In this document: piece after piece, positions 6,632 to 48,339 of the stretch
How positions within the stretch are numbered: position 1 is the stretch's first letter
Layout of the letters: each line of letters starts with the position of its first letter
DNA from: a bacterium
Lineage (GTDB): Bacteria; Margulisbacteria; Marinamargulisbacteria; JABIPA01
DNA: 64,000 bases
Reading direction: 5' to 3'
Assembly: GCA_018698675.1 (NCBI GenBank)
Contig: JABIPA010000023.1
Coordinates: 106,937 to 170,936 of the forward strand
Notes under the pieces: model-generated
Databases searched by the model: none
Told to the model about the DNA's origin: nothing
The model's input: the letters and a program-made list of their open reading frames with translations, nothing else
Translations under genes and position numbers: made by a program

Positions 6632-8476
6632 ATGTATAAAGTACTAGCTTTAAACCTAGAGGAAGTAGACTGTGATTTTCATGATTGTGCAGACGAAGAC
6701 TGGCGACGAGATTTAGCGAATTCGCAGTCGAATGTCTTAGTTGCAAACGAGGAATTTAGGGTAGACGATAAAAATGAGACTAATTACTCATTTACTGGAA
6801 CCTGTGAACCGCGAACTCCTTCAGACACATACTGGTCAGACTTCCAAGATAGGGTGGATGTAATTCAAGAAGGAAACCTATTTCACAAAGTTCAAAGGCA
6901 AGTAAAGAATTTTGAATTTGAGGCAGCTATTTTTCCAGTAGGTAAAAGCAGTATTGAGCTGATTGTTACAAAATTTAATACCGACACATTTTCAGATTTC
7001 AAAGAATTACATCGTCAAACGTATAAATGTTCGATCTCAAATATAATTTCAACATACATGGATGACAGTGGAAAATTTTTTATTGAGGTTTTATCAACTA
7101 AGGGGTTAACCGATTCTAAAGCTAAGAATCTCATTGGCGTTATTCCTGTAGAGTTTAGAGCAATTGGTAAAATGCCAGTATTTAAAGCAGCATCGGATAA
7201 ACAAGGTATCCTCAATCTAGGACATTTTGAGTTTTTGAAAGAACCTAAAGAGCGCATTATTAATACGATACGAAATGCGATACAAGATGTAAGTAAACAG
7301 GATTATATTAGTGTCGGCCTTGATGAAACGTGTTTCGGAGGGCTTTTTGCTCAAACATTTTTGCTTACTGAATTCGCGGCTTTTCCTTCTCCAAGTGTTC
7401 ACGGAATAGTTGGTTCCTATACTCCAGAAAGAGCCAATTTTTTGGATGATTATCCTATAAGTTATGTTTTACCCGGGTCAATTGGTGCTATCGAAGAACG
7501 AGTTGGACTCGCACACACTGACCGCGAATGTCAACAATTGATACGCGATTTTAATAATTGGGAATTTGGAGAATTGGATACTAATTCAAATGAAAGAATT
7601 AATAAGTTTTTTAAGTTGCAAAGAGAAGATATTGGTTCCCGTACATTTAGAGTCACATTATACCCAGAAATATATGCCGAAAAAATTGTAAATATGGCTA
7701 GAAGTATGGGACCTCAAAAGGTGGCATTGATTGCTTCTGATAGAGGTGTCTTAACACAGTTTCAAAATCAGATGAAGTATTGGGCGTCATACCCGATGTT
7801 TAAGAGAAATACATTACCGGATTTTAAAGAGCCAATGATTGAAGCGTTACAAGAATTAGTTAAGGAGTCTGTTTACCCGGCCAAGCCTTTCGATATCGTT
7901 AAGAGTGGCGATGTAATGTCTATTGGAGTTGTTCATCCCAAATATTGGTTAGAGACAGTGTCTGTTGACGAGCCATTGAGTCCTGATCGTTTCAATACCT
8001 TTCATTCATTTAATTTAAGAGAGAATGGTTTGGACACTTTTTTATCGAATGTTTTTGACGCAGGAATATTACCGATTGTGTTTGGTGAAGGTCGAAGTCG
8101 ATATAACTCTACATTGTCCAAAGAGTCGTTTAATTCTTTTCTTCAACGTGGGGAAGGGTACTTATATTCATCATTTGATAACGTTACAAAAAATGAAAAT
8201 GGAAAAATAGAGGGTCGTAGACTTTCAGAAAATTTAATTTTTGAGGATTCTGGAAACCCAAAAGATTTAAAGGCTAGAGATACATTGAATAAAAGAGATT
8301 CGATTACTGTTGAATCTATTAATACCTATCGACAATATTTAGAAGAAATTCCTAATTCGCCTCCTAGTCTTTTTGTGATATTACGAGAAAGTAGTCACTT
8401 ACGAAATATCACAGAGAAGTCTTGGCTTTACCATAGTACCTTTGGATCTTATGCCAAAGATAAGGATGAAGAATAA
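6632..8476 (+). CDS. Orphan protein, paralog of 8485..10464, candidate secreted effector
   Basis: 614-aa ORF with GGAGG RBS; shares many blocks with the downstream ORF; starts MYKVLALN. Confidence 0.75.
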   Translation: MYKVLALNLEEVDCDFHDCADEDWRRDLANSQSNVLVANEEFRVDDKNETNYSFTGTCEPRTPSDTYWSDFQDRVDVIQEGNLFHKVQRQVKNFEFEAAIFPVGKSSIELIVTKFNTDTFSDFKELHRQTYKCSISNIISTYMDDSGKFFIEVLSTKGLTDSKAKNLIGVIPVEFRAIGKMPVFKAASDKQGILNLGHFEFLKEPKERIINTIRNAIQDVSKQDYISVGLDETCFGGLFAQTFLLTEFAAFPSPSVHGIVGSYTPERANFLDDYPISYVLPGSIGAIEERVGLAHTDRECQQLIRDFNNWEFGELDTNSNERINKFFKLQREDIGSRTFRVTLYPEIYAEKIVNMARSMGPQKVALIASDRGVLTQFQNQMKYWASYPMFKRNTLPDFKEPMIEALQELVKESVYPAKPFDIVKSGDVMSIGVVHPKYWLETVSVDEPLSPDRFNTFHSFNLRENGLDTFLSNVFDAGILPIVFGEGRSRYNSTLSKESFNSFLQRGEGYLYSSFDNVTKNENGKIEGRRLSENLIFEDSGNPKDLKARDTLNKRDSITVESINTYRQYLEEIPNSPPSLFVILRESSHLRNITEKSWLYHSTFGSYAKDKDEE

Positions 8477-8484
8477 GGTAAAAA

Positions 8485-45447: not shown

Positions 45448-48339
45448 ATGAACAGTCTTTTTAAATTAATGGCCTTAAATAGCGTTGTTGAATATGATTC
45501 TTTTCCTTCAGAAATTGGGGACGTAGTTAAACAGTGGGCTAAAGAATTTCATGAGCTAGGGCAATCCTTAGTTCTTTATGGGAGTAGCCCGAAAAGGATT
45601 TTTAAGCCTAAATCTATATTTTCGCCAGTAGCTATTACGGATCTTGATTTGATGGTTTGTTCATCTAATGAAAAAGACTATAACAATGCAACAAAGCTAT
45701 TAAATAACGTCATTCAAAACTCTAATGTTGTATCTGGACATATGGAAAGTAATGCCTTGTATTATGTTCAAAATGGGTTTTTTGAAGGGCTTAAAATAAA
45801 GTTTTCGATTACAATTATGCTCAATCCTGTTCAAATTTATGACGATATTAAACATGCATATAAGCTCATTTTAGACCCGGATGGCCCAATATTAGAGTCA
45901 AACTATATAGATAGGGGGTTACAAGATTTTTCTTACGAACATAACTATCTATTTACCCCGAATGAGGCCATAAAAAATATAGGATCCAAAAGTTTTATGA
46001 GAACGGTAATGCGTTTGGCAAAGGGCGACACATTCTTAAATCCAACCCAGGCGGGTTTAGTTTTTGACGAAATATTTTATCTTCAGTCTAAAAAAAACAT
46101 GAGCAAATTTGTTAAAGACTTTATGTTTTCCTTCCGAAACCATTTTTCAACAGATGATAAGAAAGCCTTTCAACTAATGTTAAAAGAAGCAATTACGTTA
46201 ATTTCTCAATATGAAAAAAATAATTCTAATAAAATCGAATTCGAAAATATATTATGCGAAGAAATGCGTATTAATTATAAATGGGATGATAGAGATGCTT
46301 TCTTTAAGGAATGCTCGGAAATACTATTATCAACAGATGTATATACATTAGATATGGACTTTAAAGAACTAGATGTCGCTTGGAGCACTTGTTCGACGGA
46401 AGAAGGTAGGGGACATCTTTTAGAAAGCGTAAAAGAAGGCCTAAAAAAATCAACAATAAATTTCAAAGGAATAATTATTTCTGAGAACAGCCCATTTATT
46501 CATGTTGTGACTGAGTATTGTTCAAAATTTGCAATGGAAAGAGTGAATGATGATCCGGAAAAAATACAGATAGTCTTGAATGATTTTGATTTGAATTTAC
46601 TTAATGAAGAGACAGTATCTAAGCTTGCGGAGCTATCTTTTTCGTCTCCAATAGTGACTAAACTCGGCAAGGATGATGTTTCTGTTAAGTTGACTAGACA
46701 TATTATAAAAACAGAGGTTCCAGCAGATAGCTCAGTACCTACGAATTGCCTAAATGATCGGGATGTAAAATGTATTTATACGGTTGAAAAATACTCGAAT
46801 CTCGAGTTTCTTAGGGTCATCGCATGCGAGTCAGACGGATGGGTTGTATCAAACCCAATGGAACAAGAAAGGATGACCTCGTTTGTAGACCGAAATATAC
46901 AGGATCTAAATTCGGTATTCTTTTTTAGGGATATGGTTGCAGTGGTCGAAGGACTTAAAACATCCAATAAAAAGGAAAACTCTAATAGAATTAAAAATTT
47001 CACGGGCCATTTGTTGGATAAAATCGACTCTCATCTTAAGAATAGTCCAAGAATATTAATCAACGGTTTATCAAACCTATATTATATTGAAACCGGCAAA
47101 CCTTTAGCGATCTTTATGTTAAACAGAAAAATGACACAGAACATTAAAATCAATTGTGAAATGGACTTTTTACCGATACAAGAAAAATTAAATTGTGTTG
47201 CTCAAAATGAAAACGCTAAGCAATTAAAAAAAGATTACGATGACATGAAAGAATATCTATCGAGCATGATAGTTGCCGATAAAGTTAGTTTAAAAGTATC
47301 TGAATCCTATTTTATGAAAAATCCGTATATATATGAGATTTATATTGATAAATGGTGTAAATCATATGACGCTTCTTCATCTAAAAATCAATTAAGAATG
47401 AAAAATCAAATGGAGAATCTAATTGCAAACTTAGATGCAGATGAGCATATTTTGGCTTCCGCTACTATGTATTTTCTATCAAAAATGGAAATGTCATCTT
47501 TTTCTACTGAATCGATCAAAAAGGTTAAGTCGAATTTACTTAAAGACAAGGTGTCTTCCGAACCTCAAACTAAAAAATTGAAAAGGAAGAATCCAGTTTC
47601 GAAACCATCTGGAACCAAAGACGTATCAAATCCTACATTAGGAAGGCATTATATGTACTATTGCATTTTGATTATGGGTTTACTTCTTCTTTGTGACTCA
47701 TATTTGTATTCAGAATATCCTGATAAATCTTTTACAAAATTAATCGAAAACAAGACCTCGCCATTAATCTTTCCGTCTACGCCGCCAATTATTCCGAGTA
47801 AGGATGATGCTATTGTTGCATTAGGCGAAATAAACAAAGTCATACATCTTAAAAAAGACACAGATATTTCTATAATACTAAAGAATATCGACGAAGTAGA
47901 TTTGAATTTTGGGGATATAATTCGTACATATCCTAAGATTTTCGGAATAATGTCTCAACATATGGAACTTTATCCTGATCACCCGGAGGCAGTGTTAAAA
48001 CTGTTGGAGCTCGGGTATAAATTCGAAGATGAACGATCATCGAAGGGGCTACTTCCATCCCATTTTGCATTACGGTTTTATTCGTTTGATGGTTTTAAAA
48101 AAATGGTGAAAGCGAATATGCCCGTTGATGTAGAACTTGGAGGGGCTCCTCGAAAACTAAATTTAGTCGATTGTTTATATCACGTTATGTTTGAGCCATC
48201 ACCAGATTTTGACAAAAAAAAGAAATTTCTAAATGCGATGAATATTCACGAATCTGTATTTACTAGAGTCGCGTTGCTTAAGGCGATAAAGGGGAAAAAA
48301 GACATAGGGTATAAAAAAGAGTCCAATTTTATCGTGTAA
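45448..48339 (+). CDS. Orphan with N-terminal nucleotidyltransferase-like motif and a C-proximal TM helix
   Basis: LVLYGSS...TDLDLMV (GS...DxD); TM YMYYCILIMGLLLLC; ankyrin-like GLLPSHFAL. Confidence 0.55.
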   Translation: MNSLFKLMALNSVVEYDSFPSEIGDVVKQWAKEFHELGQSLVLYGSSPKRIFKPKSIFSPVAITDLDLMVCSSNEKDYNNATKLLNNVIQNSNVVSGHMESNALYYVQNGFFEGLKIKFSITIMLNPVQIYDDIKHAYKLILDPDGPILESNYIDRGLQDFSYEHNYLFTPNEAIKNIGSKSFMRTVMRLAKGDTFLNPTQAGLVFDEIFYLQSKKNMSKFVKDFMFSFRNHFSTDDKKAFQLMLKEAITLISQYEKNNSNKIEFENILCEEMRINYKWDDRDAFFKECSEILLSTDVYTLDMDFKELDVAWSTCSTEEGRGHLLESVKEGLKKSTINFKGIIISENSPFIHVVTEYCSKFAMERVNDDPEKIQIVLNDFDLNLLNEETVSKLAELSFSSPIVTKLGKDDVSVKLTRHIIKTEVPADSSVPTNCLNDRDVKCIYTVEKYSNLEFLRVIACESDGWVVSNPMEQERMTSFVDRNIQDLNSVFFFRDMVAVVEGLKTSNKKENSNRIKNFTGHLLDKIDSHLKNSPRILINGLSNLYYIETGKPLAIFMLNRKMTQNIKINCEMDFLPIQEKLNCVAQNENAKQLKKDYDDMKEYLSSMIVADKVSLKVSESYFMKNPYIYEIYIDKWCKSYDASSSKNQLRMKNQMENLIANLDADEHILASATMYFLSKMEMSSFSTESIKKVKSNLLKDKVSSEPQTKKLKRKNPVSKPSGTKDVSNPTLGRHYMYYCILIMGLLLLCDSYLYSEYPDKSFTKLIENKTSPLIFPSTPPIIPSKDDAIVALGEINKVIHLKKDTDISIILKNIDEVDLNFGDIIRTYPKIFGIMSQHMELYPDHPEAVLKLLELGYKFEDERSSKGLLPSHFALRFYSFDGFKKMVKANMPVDVELGGAPRKLNLVDCLYHVMFEPSPDFDKKKKFLNAMNIHESVFTRVALLKAIKGKKDIGYKKESNFIV

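Follow-up and report, generated by a model that had tools for sequence, protein, structure and literature searches.

[quoted passage not shown] The Cia proteins of Campylobacter jejuni are non-flagellar proteins that are exported through the flagellar gate, like the cargo proposed here, and in Campylobacter such proteins are co-expressed with sigma-28. The present case differs from that one in its apparatus, in which neither flagellin nor hook was detected and which is paralogous to the true flagellum but separate from it, and in its cargo, which is lineage-specific and numbers in the tens. Moreover, no sharp consensus is known for flagellar T3SS signals; here, a seven-residue consensus is common to dozens of proteins. 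A flagellar-dependent secretome has also been reported (PMC5223770).

Filament-less basal bodies have been proposed as exporters in Buchnera aphidicola and Lysobacter enzymogenes (PMC8109811, PMC7688988). In both, flagellin is reportedly gone, the genes for the basal body and for type III export are retained and a role in secretion rather than motility is proposed, the L. enzymogenes system being FT3SS-like and belonging to a non-flagellated bacterium. Both are relics of a lost flagellum, each within one lineage, and neither is known to have defined substrates or a defined signal. By contrast, the system considered here is phylum-wide, stands beside a real flagellum in some genomes and has candidate substrates with a promoter and a tag.

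The late promoter consensus of sigma-28 (FliA) is TAAA-N15-GCCGATAA. The promoter found here shares the -10 element, CGATAA, and its spacing (xGAAA-N17-CGATAA equals xAAA-N15-xxCGATAA); in addition, the basal-body cluster includes a gene for a FliA/WhiG-like sigma factor. However, the -35 element reads TGAAAT(T), FlgM was not found, and the regulon of about 88 sites consists almost entirely of orphans, not of genes for flagellin, hook-associated, motor or chemotaxis proteins. Two flagellin genes of flagellated relatives have the canonical TTAAAG...CCGATAA/T upstream.

Injectisome effectors resemble the tagged proteins in forming a large, fast-evolving repertoire rich in eukaryote-like domains (Ank, ARM, RING and kinase-like) and in having an N-terminal signal followed by a polar, disordered stretch, but the apparatus here has flagellar-type L/P rings, rod proteins and FliM/FliN. 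To our knowledge, injectisome signals have no consensus. The ESPR of autotransporters, MN[KR]I[YF][KR]hhW[NS]..., bears a superficial likeness to the tag, with a [YF]-K-[IV]-[IV]-x-[NS] core at the extreme N-terminus. It is followed, however, by a classical Sec signal peptide, whereas most tagged proteins have no hydrophobic segment, and its W position is S/A-L in the tag.

An N-terminal motif under selection as a peptide

The window analyzed here is a 64,000-nt stretch of contig JABIPA010000023.1, from a marine Marinamargulisbacteria MAG (2.49 Mb, 91% complete). ORF calling in the genome, with a minimum length of 80 aa, gave 1969 ORFs; because the calls were our own and took the longest start, start positions are approximate. 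A preliminary description of the window had singled out five proteins with a common N-terminal tag (Table 1). On re-reading the sequence, all five N-termini are present at the coordinates claimed for them, each at the first possible start codon past the upstream stop. By PSSM (see below), the five genes rank as the top five of the 39 in the window; the sixth scores 2.3.

Table 1. Tags and sigma-28-like promoters in the window
Feature	Position	Strand	Context	PSSM score
Tag MYKVLALN	6632..6655	+	Start of 614-aa orphan gene 6632-8476	14.2
Tag MYKIISLN	8485..8508	+	Start of 659-aa orphan gene 8485-10464	18.7
Tag MTFKIIAIS	21760..21786	-	Start of 1693-aa gene 16705-21786	17.3
Weak tag MQLKLISSS (borderline member by score)	23795..23821	-	Start of 624-aa kinase-like gene 21947-23821	7.7
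Sigma-28-like promoter TGAAAT-N16-CGACAA, 1 mismatch	23835..23862	-	13 nt 5' of start 23821	
Sigma-28-like promoter TAGAAT-N16-CGATAA, 2 mismatches	45413..45440	+	7 nt 5' of start 45448	
Tag MNSLFKLMALNS	45448..45483	+	Start of 963-aa orphan gene 45448-48339	11.6
Exact sigma-28-like promoter TGAAAT-N16-CGATAA	53003..53030	-	5' of untagged gene 49133-52948	

The earlier core pattern, [YFL]K[VIL][LIM][AS][LIS][NS], was searched over the whole genome (759,950 residues) and matched 12 times: eight matches lie at residues 2-5 behind Met, two at residues 8-9 and two internally. A PSSM was then trained on N-terminal matches, and the first 10 positions were scored against 724,508 internal sites. At a score of at least 14, 47 genes matched N-terminally, compared with 0.3 expected from 11 internal sites; at a score of at least 9, there were 68 genes vs. 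3.4 expected. Could such a short peptide nevertheless occur at background frequency in N-termini? It does not: when residues 1-18 were shuffled column by column 200 times, the mean count at a score of at least 14 was 0.5 (maximum 4), and 48 were observed. By PSSM, 41-60 of the 1969 proteins are tagged, vs. about 0.5 expected; rather than the five proteins originally proposed, the tagged set comprises about 45-75 proteins genome-wide and reaches across the phylum.

The core of the tag is [Y/F/K]-K-I-I-S-L-[N/S], and the fuller motif is M-x(0-8)-[K/Y/F]-K-I-[I/L]-[S/A]-[L/I]-[S/N/P], the distance between tag and Met varying from 0 to 8 residues. Ser occupies position 5 in 34 of 44 high-scoring members, and position 7 is polar (S/N/P). 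The linker that follows is rich in Pro/Asn, poor in Gly/Ala/Val and disordered-looking.

It might be argued that the matches have no specific function and represent "MKKI..." beginnings of the kind common in AT-rich genomes, the beta-1 strands of alpha/beta folds or signal peptides. Low-score matches do fit that type: CarB (MPKRTDIKKILLIGSG), a response regulator (MTKKIILIDDD), a ParA-like protein (MKKISVINYKGG) and a lipoprotein-like protein (MKKSPFKIIAIGLATLVV). TrmD is a further low-score false positive, and the DNA pattern, which lies above control in other lineages, often reads MKKIIAL there. The excess over column-preserving shuffles speaks against this explanation, as do the Ser5 and polar residue 7 of the high scorers, which are neither G-x-G nor a hydrophobic run; the high scorers also have a common promoter and no Pfam domains. 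For scores of at least 12 the explanation is largely refuted, and we give it almost no weight.

Selection on the mRNA is improbable as well; on this view, the start of the coding region would be A/U-rich and unstructured so as to aid initiation on leaderless or short-leader transcripts from the sigma-28-like promoters. The commonest tag codons (AAA, ATT/ATA and TCT/TCA) are indeed A/U-rich, CGATA lies close enough to ATG to suggest leaderless or near-leaderless mRNAs (it ends no more than 12 nt before ATG at 9 of 77 promoter sites and begins 12-15 nt 5' of ATG in six tagged genes), and tagged genes are preceded by an SD-like sequence slightly less often than others (39% vs. 46%). However, Ser/Ala and Ile/Leu/Val (TTR, CTN, ATH, GTN) are mixed at given positions, the residue order is fixed despite an offset of 0-8 codons from ATG, and DNA patterns of the same composition, when permuted, are 3-5 times rarer. 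Furthermore, some tagged genes have a strong SD and a long leader, and the tag is kept in a 41%-GC relative. Lys is encoded by AAA 43 times and AAG seven times, Ser by TCT (16), TCA (12), TCG (4), TCC (3) and AGY (4), and the Ile/Leu positions by at least eight different codons; since no position of the tag is tied to one synonymous codon, selection acts on the peptide. From the eight of 12 pattern matches behind Met, the PSSM excess and the mixed codons, we conclude that the tag is, as first described, a genuine N-terminal peptide motif.

The tagged proteins

The tagged proteins look like exported, non-housekeeping proteins. Their median length is 402 aa vs. 296 aa (p 2e-4), and 48 of them yielded 26 Pfam families, compared with 98 for 48 random untagged proteins; the matches are to Ank, ARM, WD40-like, zf-RING_2 and TPR families and a few enzymes. 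A Sec/TM-like N-terminus was seen in 8 of the 68 with a PSSM score of at least 9, the initial 45-60 residues of the other 60 being free of hydrophobic segments. These length, Pfam and Sec counts agree with the initial picture of large, domain-poor or eukaryote-like cargo without Sec signals, and the statement that housekeeping genes are free of the tag holds at high scores (CarB and TrmD appear at low ones). The proposal of a single "effector family" did not survive: the tagged proteins are unrelated to one another, and thus what they have in common is a signal.

Among the window's genes, 6632-8476 and 8485-10464 encode the paralog pair that had been recognized before. Their products are 29% identical from residue 55 onward; the eight-residue tag is conserved, and residues 9-54 are unalignable. 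A GGAGG lies 8-12 nt 5' of start 6632, and RNA-library contigs (runs X8 and X9) match portions of that gene, a weak hint of expression. No Pfam family was matched by either paralog or by the 963-aa protein; the class has 54 other genomes, none of which encodes a homolog of the 659-aa or the 963-aa protein, nor was one for the former found in the genome-contig collection. The 1693-aa protein has ankyrin repeats (residues 1274-1440). The "terpene cyclase" of the preliminary description falls short, as its Pfam match reaches only 16.2 bits (cut-off 23.7). Of the "pseudokinase," a kinase-like assignment stands for the 624-aa protein with a good ESM-Atlas lead of 0.95, and the "NTase-TM" assignment is reduced to a weak NTase/Ank lead of 0.88 for the 963-aa protein. 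For one further tagged protein, a full HMMER scan of 1.84e9 representatives returned three relatives.

Comparisons with relatives show that the tag is kept even as the cargo diverges. A same-genus ortholog of a tagged protein (31% identity) begins MHYKILPV, and a relative from another family (22% identical) begins MRYKIIGF. Comparable tagged sets occur in other lineages of the phylum: in a 400-kb sample of G010, from another family, 6 of 362 genes scored at least 12, vs. 1 of 117,207 internal sites, and in a 400-kb sample of G058, from another class, 9 of 379 genes scored at least 9, one of them a CarB false positive. A DNA-pattern survey of other genomes was unspecific, as MKKIIAL-type signal peptides match too; its matches were zero in G004 and G015, where FlhA is present.

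Would such proteins need to leave the cell? The tag could be an intracellular control element, such as an N-terminal degron or a site where an adaptor, a chaperone or a ClpXP- or Lon-type protease docks, by which the proteins of the sigma-28 regulon are kept low or timed in their activity while acting inside the bacterium. N-terminal ClpX recognition motifs of the Met-basic-hydrophobic type exist, and a short basic-hydrophobic motif near the N-terminus, followed by a disordered-looking Pro/Asn-rich stretch in a co-regulated set of genes, would suit such a role. Yet the tag floats 0-8 residues from Met and is therefore not anchored to the free N-terminus, nothing ties it to any protease, and a cargo of Ank, ARM, WD40, RING and TPR proteins and lineage-specific orphans is typical of extracellular action. 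We consider this explanation unlikely.

A sigma-28-type promoter and a flagellar-type apparatus

CGATAA precedes 18 of 44 tagged genes, compared with 152 of 1829 untagged ones (p 9e-9). TGAAA-N17-CGATA has 88 sites at spacing 17 vs. 6-28 at other spacings, and the strict promoter, TGAAAT-N16-CGATAA, precedes 10 of 41 tagged and 55 of 1872 untagged genes (OR 10.7, p 5e-7). Viewed from the promoter, 24 of 77 promoter-driven ORFs have K[IVL][IVL][SA] within their first 16 aa, vs. 69 of 1893 others (OR 12, p 6e-15); promoter-driven genes are long, and 8% of them encode signal peptides, vs. 24%. Counts for promoter vs. control in relatives were 38/4 (G001), 31/2 (G002), 16/4 (G003), 9/1 (G010) and 10/5 (G011), and 5 of the 20 downstream ORFs examined there scored at least 10. 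Tagged genes that have the strict promoter are a minority (24-30%), and about two thirds of promoter-driven genes have no tag. The samples of G010 and G058 showed no enrichment at spacing 17; the coupling of tag and promoter is thus not universal.

Across the window, matches with two mismatches number 15 vs. 15.4 expected, which is chance level, so that the argument for the site at 45413..45440 is its position. The exact promoter precedes a gene for a 1271-aa orphan with a GTG start, no tag and no Pfam family, an untagged member of the same regulon. The promoter, with its fixed spacing, has the sigma-28/FliA architecture; its link to tagged genes is new here.

The genome encodes FlhA, FlhB, FliP, FliR, FliM, FliN, FliF and FliI, as well as FlgI, FlgH, FlgA, FlgC/F/G, FliE-like and FliK-like proteins and a standalone FlhB_C-like protein. 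For the sigma factor of the basal-body cluster, the best-matching family is FliA/WhiG (E 2e-36), but it lies under the NCBIfam FliA cut-off (125.8 vs. 189.6 bits). FlhA is present in 135 of 146 genomes of the phylum (62-78% identity), and its near universality means that patterns of presence and absence cannot discriminate; flagellin occurs in only 15 of the 146, and just 1 of the 55 genomes that belong to the class has it. Flagellin, hook, T4SS VirB4 and phage-type contractile sheath families were not detected in this genome, and because the MAG is 91% complete, these results mean "not found." Among the secretion machines suggested at the outset, then, a flagellar-type T3SS was found and is linked to the tag through the promoter, whereas T4SS and contractile systems were not. 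G058, which is flagellated, has an ortholog of this FlhA that is 66% identical, with the order FlhA / small ORF / sigma kept; beside it stands a second FlhA, 40% identical, with FlhF, FlhG, FliA and CheW. In flagellated relatives, the apparatus coexists with a true flagellum, as a separate paralog.

The canonical substrates FlgG, FlgC, FliE-like and FliK-like lack the tag, which can therefore be at most a class-specific signal. Their lack of it would also fit a tag that targets elsewhere, to an unrecognized secretion route, the inner membrane, the cell pole or an organelle. A hydrophobic segment soon after the tag in three to four proteins (among them a 973-aa protein of C40, a 377-aa protein of C41 and the product of window gene 8485) points the same way, several tagged proteins having a TM segment 20-30 residues past the tag, and a pseudopilin (GFTLIE N-terminus) is encoded, so a T2SS/T4P-type system is present. 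But a T2SS requires Sec or Tat signals, and these are missing from 60 of the 68 tagged proteins; VirB4 and sheath families were not found, and the promoter link favors the flagellar-type system. We regard another destination as quite unlikely.

A candidate signal for late substrates

The shared flagellar-type promoter suggests export via a filament-less, flagellum-like machine. In our estimation, there is about an even chance that late substrates of this filament-less flagellar T3SS are marked by the tag for export or recognition. We know of no sequence consensus among T3SS signals, and so a consensus as sharp as this one is atypical and counts against export. If export is nonetheless the role of the tag, we infer that the FliA-like sigma factor from the basal-body clusters would transcribe tagged genes at TGAAAT-N16-CGATAA promoters, and that the tag with its Pro/Asn-rich linker would be recognized on the cytoplasmic side of a type III export apparatus that derives from a flagellum and is made up of FlhA, FlhB, FliPQR, FliI, FliF, FliM/N, rod proteins and L/P rings, with a FliK/FlhB-type switch. 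The tagged proteins would then stand in for the "late" (filament-class) substrates and leave the cell.

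A seven-residue tag at the N-termini of orphan proteins

The preliminary description had drawn attention to a peptide motif, here called the KIIS tag, at the N-termini encoded by five genes of the window (starts 6632, 8485 and 45448 on the plus strand, 21786 and 23821 on the minus strand). All five N-termini are present, each at the first start codon past the upstream stop. The analysis was extended to the whole genome, in which 1969 ORFs of at least 80 aa were called in-house from the longest possible start; the starts are therefore approximate. The core regular expression of the preliminary description matched 12 times in the genome's 759,950 residues: eight times directly behind the methionine, twice at residues 8–9, and twice internally. 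Relaxed patterns yielded many more members, located on many contigs. A score matrix (PSSM) was then iterated on the N-terminal matches. At a score of at least 14, the motif occurs at the N-termini of 47 genes, where 0.3 were expected (11 internal sites in 724,508 positions); at a score of at least 9, 68 genes were found vs. 3.4 expected. Permuting each of the first 18 columns among the genes, which keeps the N-terminal composition, gave a mean of 0.5 genes (maximum 4) at the higher threshold, compared with 48 observed. By both measures the tag stands far above background, and that it is a generic MKKI start is exceedingly improbable.

After the removal of Sec- or TM-like N-termini, 41 (score of at least 14), 44 (at least 12), or 60 (at least 9) of the 1969 genes are tagged, and the tag stands behind a downstream start codon in some 10 further genes. 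The five flagged genes are the best five of the 39 window genes by PSSM (18.7, 17.3, 14.2, 11.6, and 7.7; the next scores 2.3). Housekeeping proteins appear as false positives among the low-scoring matches (CarB, TrmD, and a response regulator). The consensus reads [K/Y/F]-K-I-[I/L]-[S/A]-[L/I]-[S/N/P], with no conservation beyond it. It begins right behind the methionine in 17 of 44 proteins and at most eight residues later in the others, such that the motif starts at residues 2–10. The 30 residues that follow are biased toward Pro (1.74-fold) and Asn (1.34-fold) and are depleted of Gly (0.55-fold) and of Ala and Val (0.68-fold each).

Tagged proteins are longer than the others (median 402 vs. 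296 aa; Mann-Whitney p = 2e-4). A hydrophobic N-terminal segment, defined as a Kyte-Doolittle 15-mer with a mean of at least 2.0 in windows starting within the first 45 residues, is absent from 60 of 68; the remaining eight are probable false positives or N-in membrane proteins, and the tag does not behave as a Sec or lipoprotein signal, in which a positively charged n-region precedes a hydrophobic h-region of 10–15 residues. Matches to known families are sparse: 48 tagged proteins (~29,000 residues) contain 26 Pfam families in total, compared with 98 in 48 random untagged, promoter-less control proteins from fetched loci (18,118 residues). Among the matches are repeat and RING types (ankyrin and ARM in two proteins each, WD40-like, zf-RING_2, TPR) as well as an aminotransferase-ApbA fusion, His_Phos_2, a methyltransferase, and a P-loop protein. 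In an asparaginase-like protein, the tag sits in an N-terminal extension of about 55 residues.

The window's own tagged proteins are similarly isolated. Neither the product of 8485–10464 nor that of 45448–48339 has a homolog among the class's 54 other genomes, and a search of genome contigs with the 659-aa protein returned no relative. A good kinase-like lead was obtained for the 624-aa protein, and a weak NTase/Ank lead, at a somewhat lower score, for the 963-aa protein; neither matched a solved structure in the search performed. The window's two paralogs have the tag in common and align at 29% identity from residue 55 on, but residues 9–54 are not shared. Contigs from RNA libraries cover parts of gene 6632–8476; DNA is possible in such libraries, and the uncovered parts are uninformative. 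One of these contigs, from run X9, spans 6317–6659, from the end of an ABC-F gene into the tagged gene. The two genes may be co-transcribed, with the same proviso that such libraries can contain DNA. Elsewhere in the genome, four giant genes stand in tandem (C51:25084-52656; 2182, 2189, 2508, and 2042 aa), each opening with ...LFYKI[L/V]S; the last of them is preceded by a promoter site of the type described below, and the first has no Pfam family.

Locations of the features of the window and of the flagellar gene clusters (window positions unless a contig is named)
Feature	Position	Strand	Remark
Window	C65:106937-170936		contig of the window's own genome
Promoter site, exact	53003-53030	-	before untagged 1271-aa orphan
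Promoter site, 1 mismatch	13 nt before tagged start 23821	-	
Promoter site, 2 mismatches	7 nt before tagged start 45448	+	
907-aa protein, PT disordered repeats	13810-16533	+	
Fused PutA (proline dehydrogenase + aldehyde dehydrogenase)	39430-42726	-	
789-aa LRR protein	42897-45266	+	signal-peptide-like N-terminus
Bacterial alpha-2-macroglobulin, 1972 aa	56160-62078	+	signal peptide
Class A penicillin-binding protein (transglycosylase + transpeptidase)	62095-63999	+	directly after alpha-2-macroglobulin gene
Basal body and export gene clusters	C74:88647-97415 and C31:8542-19363		outside window

The alpha-2-macroglobulin and penicillin-binding protein genes resemble the usual A2M-PBP1C pair.

A sigma-28-type promoter upstream of tagged genes

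A k-mer screen of upstream regions found CGATAA within 150 nt of 18 of 44 tagged genes vs. 152 of 1829 untagged ones (p = 9e-9). When aligned, the sites read AAAA-TGAAAT(T)-N16-CGATAA, and the spacing is specific: TGAAA-N17-CGATA occurs at 88 sites genome-wide, compared with 6–28 at other spacings from 10 to 25. The consensus of sigma-28/FliA promoters is TAAA-N15-GCCGATAA; the sites at tagged genes match the -35/-10 architecture and fixed spacer of such promoters. However, sigma-28/FliA promoters drive flagellin, FlgM, motor, and chemotaxis genes, whereas the genes downstream here are orphans. Ten of 41 tagged genes have the strict form of the site within 250 nt, as do 55 of 1872 untagged genes (OR 10.7, p = 5e-7), and a promoter PWM detects 13 of 44 and 63 of 1872, respectively. 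Taken from the other direction, K[IVL][IVL][SA] is present in the first 16 residues of 24 of 77 promoter-driven ORFs vs. 69 of 1893 other genes (OR 12, p = 6e-15). The promoter-driven genes have a median length of 440 aa, and 8% of them encode signal peptides, compared with 24%.

Several features of this gene set were observed in passing. The roughly 88 TGAAAT-N16-CGATAA sites precede mostly orphan genes, among them giants of 3932 (C41:24249-36047), 2212, and 1997 aa. The untagged promoter-driven genes contain a second N-terminal class, M-D-[A/S/N]-[I/L/V], in 7 of 76 cases vs. 9 of 1893 others (OR 21), exemplified by MDNISNS, MDAITSG, and MDSIGQD; this start may represent another type of signal used within the regulon.

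CGATA ends no more than 12 nt before the ATG at 9 of the 77 promoter sites, and several mRNAs would therefore be leaderless or nearly so. Such sites lend something to the notion that the motif is a feature of leaderless transcripts, acting at the level of mRNA. The codon evidence opposes this notion, which we consider very unlikely: selection acts on the peptide, not on the DNA. The upstream DNA is dissimilar among the five window genes. Lysine codons at the motif (43 AAA, 7 AAG) are used as in the genome at large; the isoleucine codons are mixed (ATA, ATT, ATC), the Leu/Ile position draws on at least eight codons, and serine, which alternates with alanine, is encoded by TCT, TCA, TCG, TCC, and four AGY. 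The same codons reordered as DNA patterns are 3–5 times rarer behind ATG.

The promoter pattern also exceeds a reversed control in relatives (G001, 38 vs. 4; G002, 31 vs. 2; G003, 16 vs. 4; G010, 9 vs. 1; G011, 10 vs. 5). Thirty of the relatives' sites were fetched; 20 have a downstream ORF, and five of those score at least 10 by PSSM, with the N-termini MVYKILSLN, MNLKKIISAS, MTKINKKIIAC, MLTHKHIALPP, and MANNYKIISLS. In 400-kb samples of G010 (another family) and G058 (another class), there was no promoter enrichment at spacing 17, which argues against a universal coupling of tag and promoter. Among 10 flagellin genes of flagellated relatives, only two (in G062 and G064) have a canonical sigma-28-like site within 600 nt; three have weak xxAAA...CGATA matches and five have none.

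A flagellar-type export apparatus and the organism that encodes it

The preliminary description had named a flagellar or type III machine among the possible destinations of the tagged proteins, and a flagellar-type export gene set is indeed present. The genome (2.49 Mb, 74 contigs, ~35% GC, 91% complete, 0.09% contamination) encodes FliF, a FliG_N-like protein, FliM, FliN, FliP, FliR, FlhB, FlhA, FlgI, FlgH, FlgA, FlgC, an FlgF-like protein, FlgG, FliE- and FliK-like proteins, a standalone FlhB_C-like protein, and a MinD/FlhG-like ATPase. The basal-body and export genes lie in two clusters, and FliI is encoded elsewhere. All parts of a basal body are represented (MS, C, L, and P rings, rod, export gate, and ATPase), as is the type III core (FlhA, FlhB, FliP, FliR, FliF, FliM, FliN, FliI). 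One cluster contains a 223-aa sigma factor (C31:12398-13069) whose best NCBIfam match, over its full length, is FliA/WhiG TIGR02479 (E = 2e-36; 125.8 bits vs. a cut-off of 189.6). A second sigma-like gene adjoins flhA and matches in region 4 only. The FlgF-like rod protein (C31:16795-17601, minus strand; LlgE_F_G_D1; TIGR02490, E = 3e-19) has a Sec-like signal peptide, MRKANMKKIFRLILLVALPFF at its start, which is unexpected in a rod protein that is a type III substrate; the start may have been miscalled.

Filament components were not found in this 91%-complete genome: Flagellin_N had no matches, neither FlgM nor FliS was detected, and the three Flg_bbr_C matches are all rod-sized, with no hook-sized protein among them. 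The other machines named in the preliminary description, a type IV system or a contractile injection system, fared differently: VirB4 (PF03135) and the phage-type sheath (PF04984) had no matches in the genome, in a search confined to these two families. That the tag targets another destination or machine seems distinctly unlikely.

A basal-body and export gene set lacking flagellin, hook, and FliS extends through the phylum. Within the class, FlhA is present in 49 of 55 genomes (18 of 18 of high quality) and Flagellin_N in one of 55. The contig that bears this sole match (G005:C64:1277-1687, L142; start MIINHNLASINA) is 2 kb long, in a MAG with 78% completeness and 3% contamination; the match may be contamination. 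Across the phylum, FlhA is present in 135 of 146 genomes, which makes its presence or absence uninformative as a discriminator, and flagellin is present in 15 of 146. Thirteen flagellin-positive genomes, from families f31–f34, each have at least two FlhA matches. In G058, the copy with 66% identity to the FlhA of the window's genome precedes a small ORF and a sigma-like gene, the same order as there; downstream of the 40%-identical copy come FlhF, FlhG, and a complete FliA, and CheW is close by. The two copies therefore indicate that the phylum-wide system is a paralog separate from the flagellum rather than merely a decaying one.

The eukaryote-like cargo might suggest a chlamydia- or legionella-like organism, a reading that was rejected. 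The genome's single FlhA is 73–78% identical to those of Candidatus Marinamargulisbacteria/Margulisiibacteriota MAGs, ~62% to those of Saganbacteria/WOR-1, and ~46% to those of Sericytochromatia. The window stretch also turns up in sequencing runs of several studies, labelled as marine or seawater metagenome; runs X6–X11, in which the share of words is small, were left out of this reading of habitat. From these identities and the seawater runs, it follows that the organism is not chlamydia- or legionella-like; it belongs to an uncultured phylum sister to Cyanobacteria. The class includes an intracellular symbiont of Trichoplax (PMC6784892).

Function and distribution of the tag

Type III signals occupy the first ~20–30 residues of their proteins, are not cleavable signal peptides of the Sec type, and are disordered and rich in Ser, Thr, Pro, and Asn. 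The tag is like them in position and in its non-Sec nature. To our knowledge, type III signals normally have no sequence consensus; the tag differs in this respect, as it has a sharp seven-residue consensus in place of a compositional bias only. As for the apparatus, FlgH/FlgI rings and FlgC/F/G rods are present; an injectisome has the secretin SctC, a needle, and a translocon in place of such rings and rods. Judged from sequence, the best fit is that the tagged proteins are putative late substrates of a filament-less flagellar-type apparatus, a reading to which we give an even chance. It draws together the non-Sec N-terminal tag, the effector-like, fast-turnover cargo, the sigma-28-type regulon, and the conserved apparatus, which keeps the FliK/FlhB substrate switch with no filament to build. 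Its weak points are that canonical rod-type substrates do not carry the tag, that a sharp consensus is atypical of type III signals, that two thirds of the regulon are likewise untagged, and that no more than one quarter to one third of the tagged genes have the strict promoter. That the tag is an intracellular degron or docking site is unlikely. Modelling of FlhA_C and FlhB_C in complex with a tagged N-terminus of 45 residues scored nil, with the controls unfolded, and carries no weight either way.

A homologous-protein search with a 973-aa tagged protein of C40 returned only itself; a full HMMER scan found three relatives. Its same-genus ortholog (31% identity) starts MHYKILPV, and a relative in another family (22% identity) starts MRYKIIGF. 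One of the three relatives from the HMMER scan, P0002 (254 aa, MDSIPTIL...), was considered as the same cargo with a different N-terminus; this was rejected, as P0002 comes from the interior of the G001 ortholog. In the G010 sample (41% GC), 6 of 362 genes score at least 12, vs. one internal site in 117,207; the consensus is MKKIIS[T/A]P, and the tagged genes stand in tandem arrays. Of 379 genes in the G058 sample, two score at least 12 and nine at least 9, CarB included, with the consensus M[K/R][Y/N]KIIS. These two samples indicate a phylum-wide tag with local dialects and unconserved cargo. The claim of spread rests on them and not on a DNA-pattern survey of 55 class and 146 phylum genomes, which is a lead only, because the excess was weak (the window's genome stood only ~2–6-fold above control) and the pattern also matches MKKIIAL-type signal peptides. 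The idea that the tag occurs only where flagellin is absent was rejected: the flagellated G058 has tag-like N-termini.

The closest precedents are the Campylobacter flagellum, which is reported to export non-flagellar proteins via N-terminal signals (PMC2764114, PMC5223770), and the filament-less basal bodies reported in Buchnera and Lysobacter (PMC8109811, PMC7688988). Literature searches on Marinamargulisbacteria and Margulisbacteria, confined to main articles, brought up nothing on an N-terminal motif, sigma-28 regulon, or filament-less type III system in this phylum, and PMC6349859 contains neither "secretion" nor "pili" nor any word beginning "flagell" or "motil". We file the tag as a candidate N-terminal type III-class signal, of a known kind but variant form. 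It is possible, if doubtful, that Margulisiibacteriota hold a third type III lineage beside the flagellum and the injectisome: phylum-wide and flagellum-derived, with rings and rod, no filament, and its own FliA-like sigma factor, exporting a large, fast-turnover repertoire of orphan and eukaryote-like proteins, with KIIS as a dedicated, sequence-defined export signal.

Should the tag prove to be an export signal, no earlier signal of the type III class would have had a simple consensus. Pattern searches of genomes would then reveal the secretome of an entire candidate phylum, the sister of Cyanobacteria, which includes an intracellular animal symbiont (PMC6784892); the promoter (~88 sites) offers an additional, independent way into this regulon. 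A conserved apparatus without flagellin, beside a true flagellum in some members, bears on the long-standing question of how secretion systems branched from the flagellum and on the role of Buchnera-type basal bodies; with candidate substrates named, the role of filament-less basal bodies is now testable. Even as a degron or docking site, a seven-residue N-terminal code on 2–4% of a proteome would be unusual and experimentally tractable.
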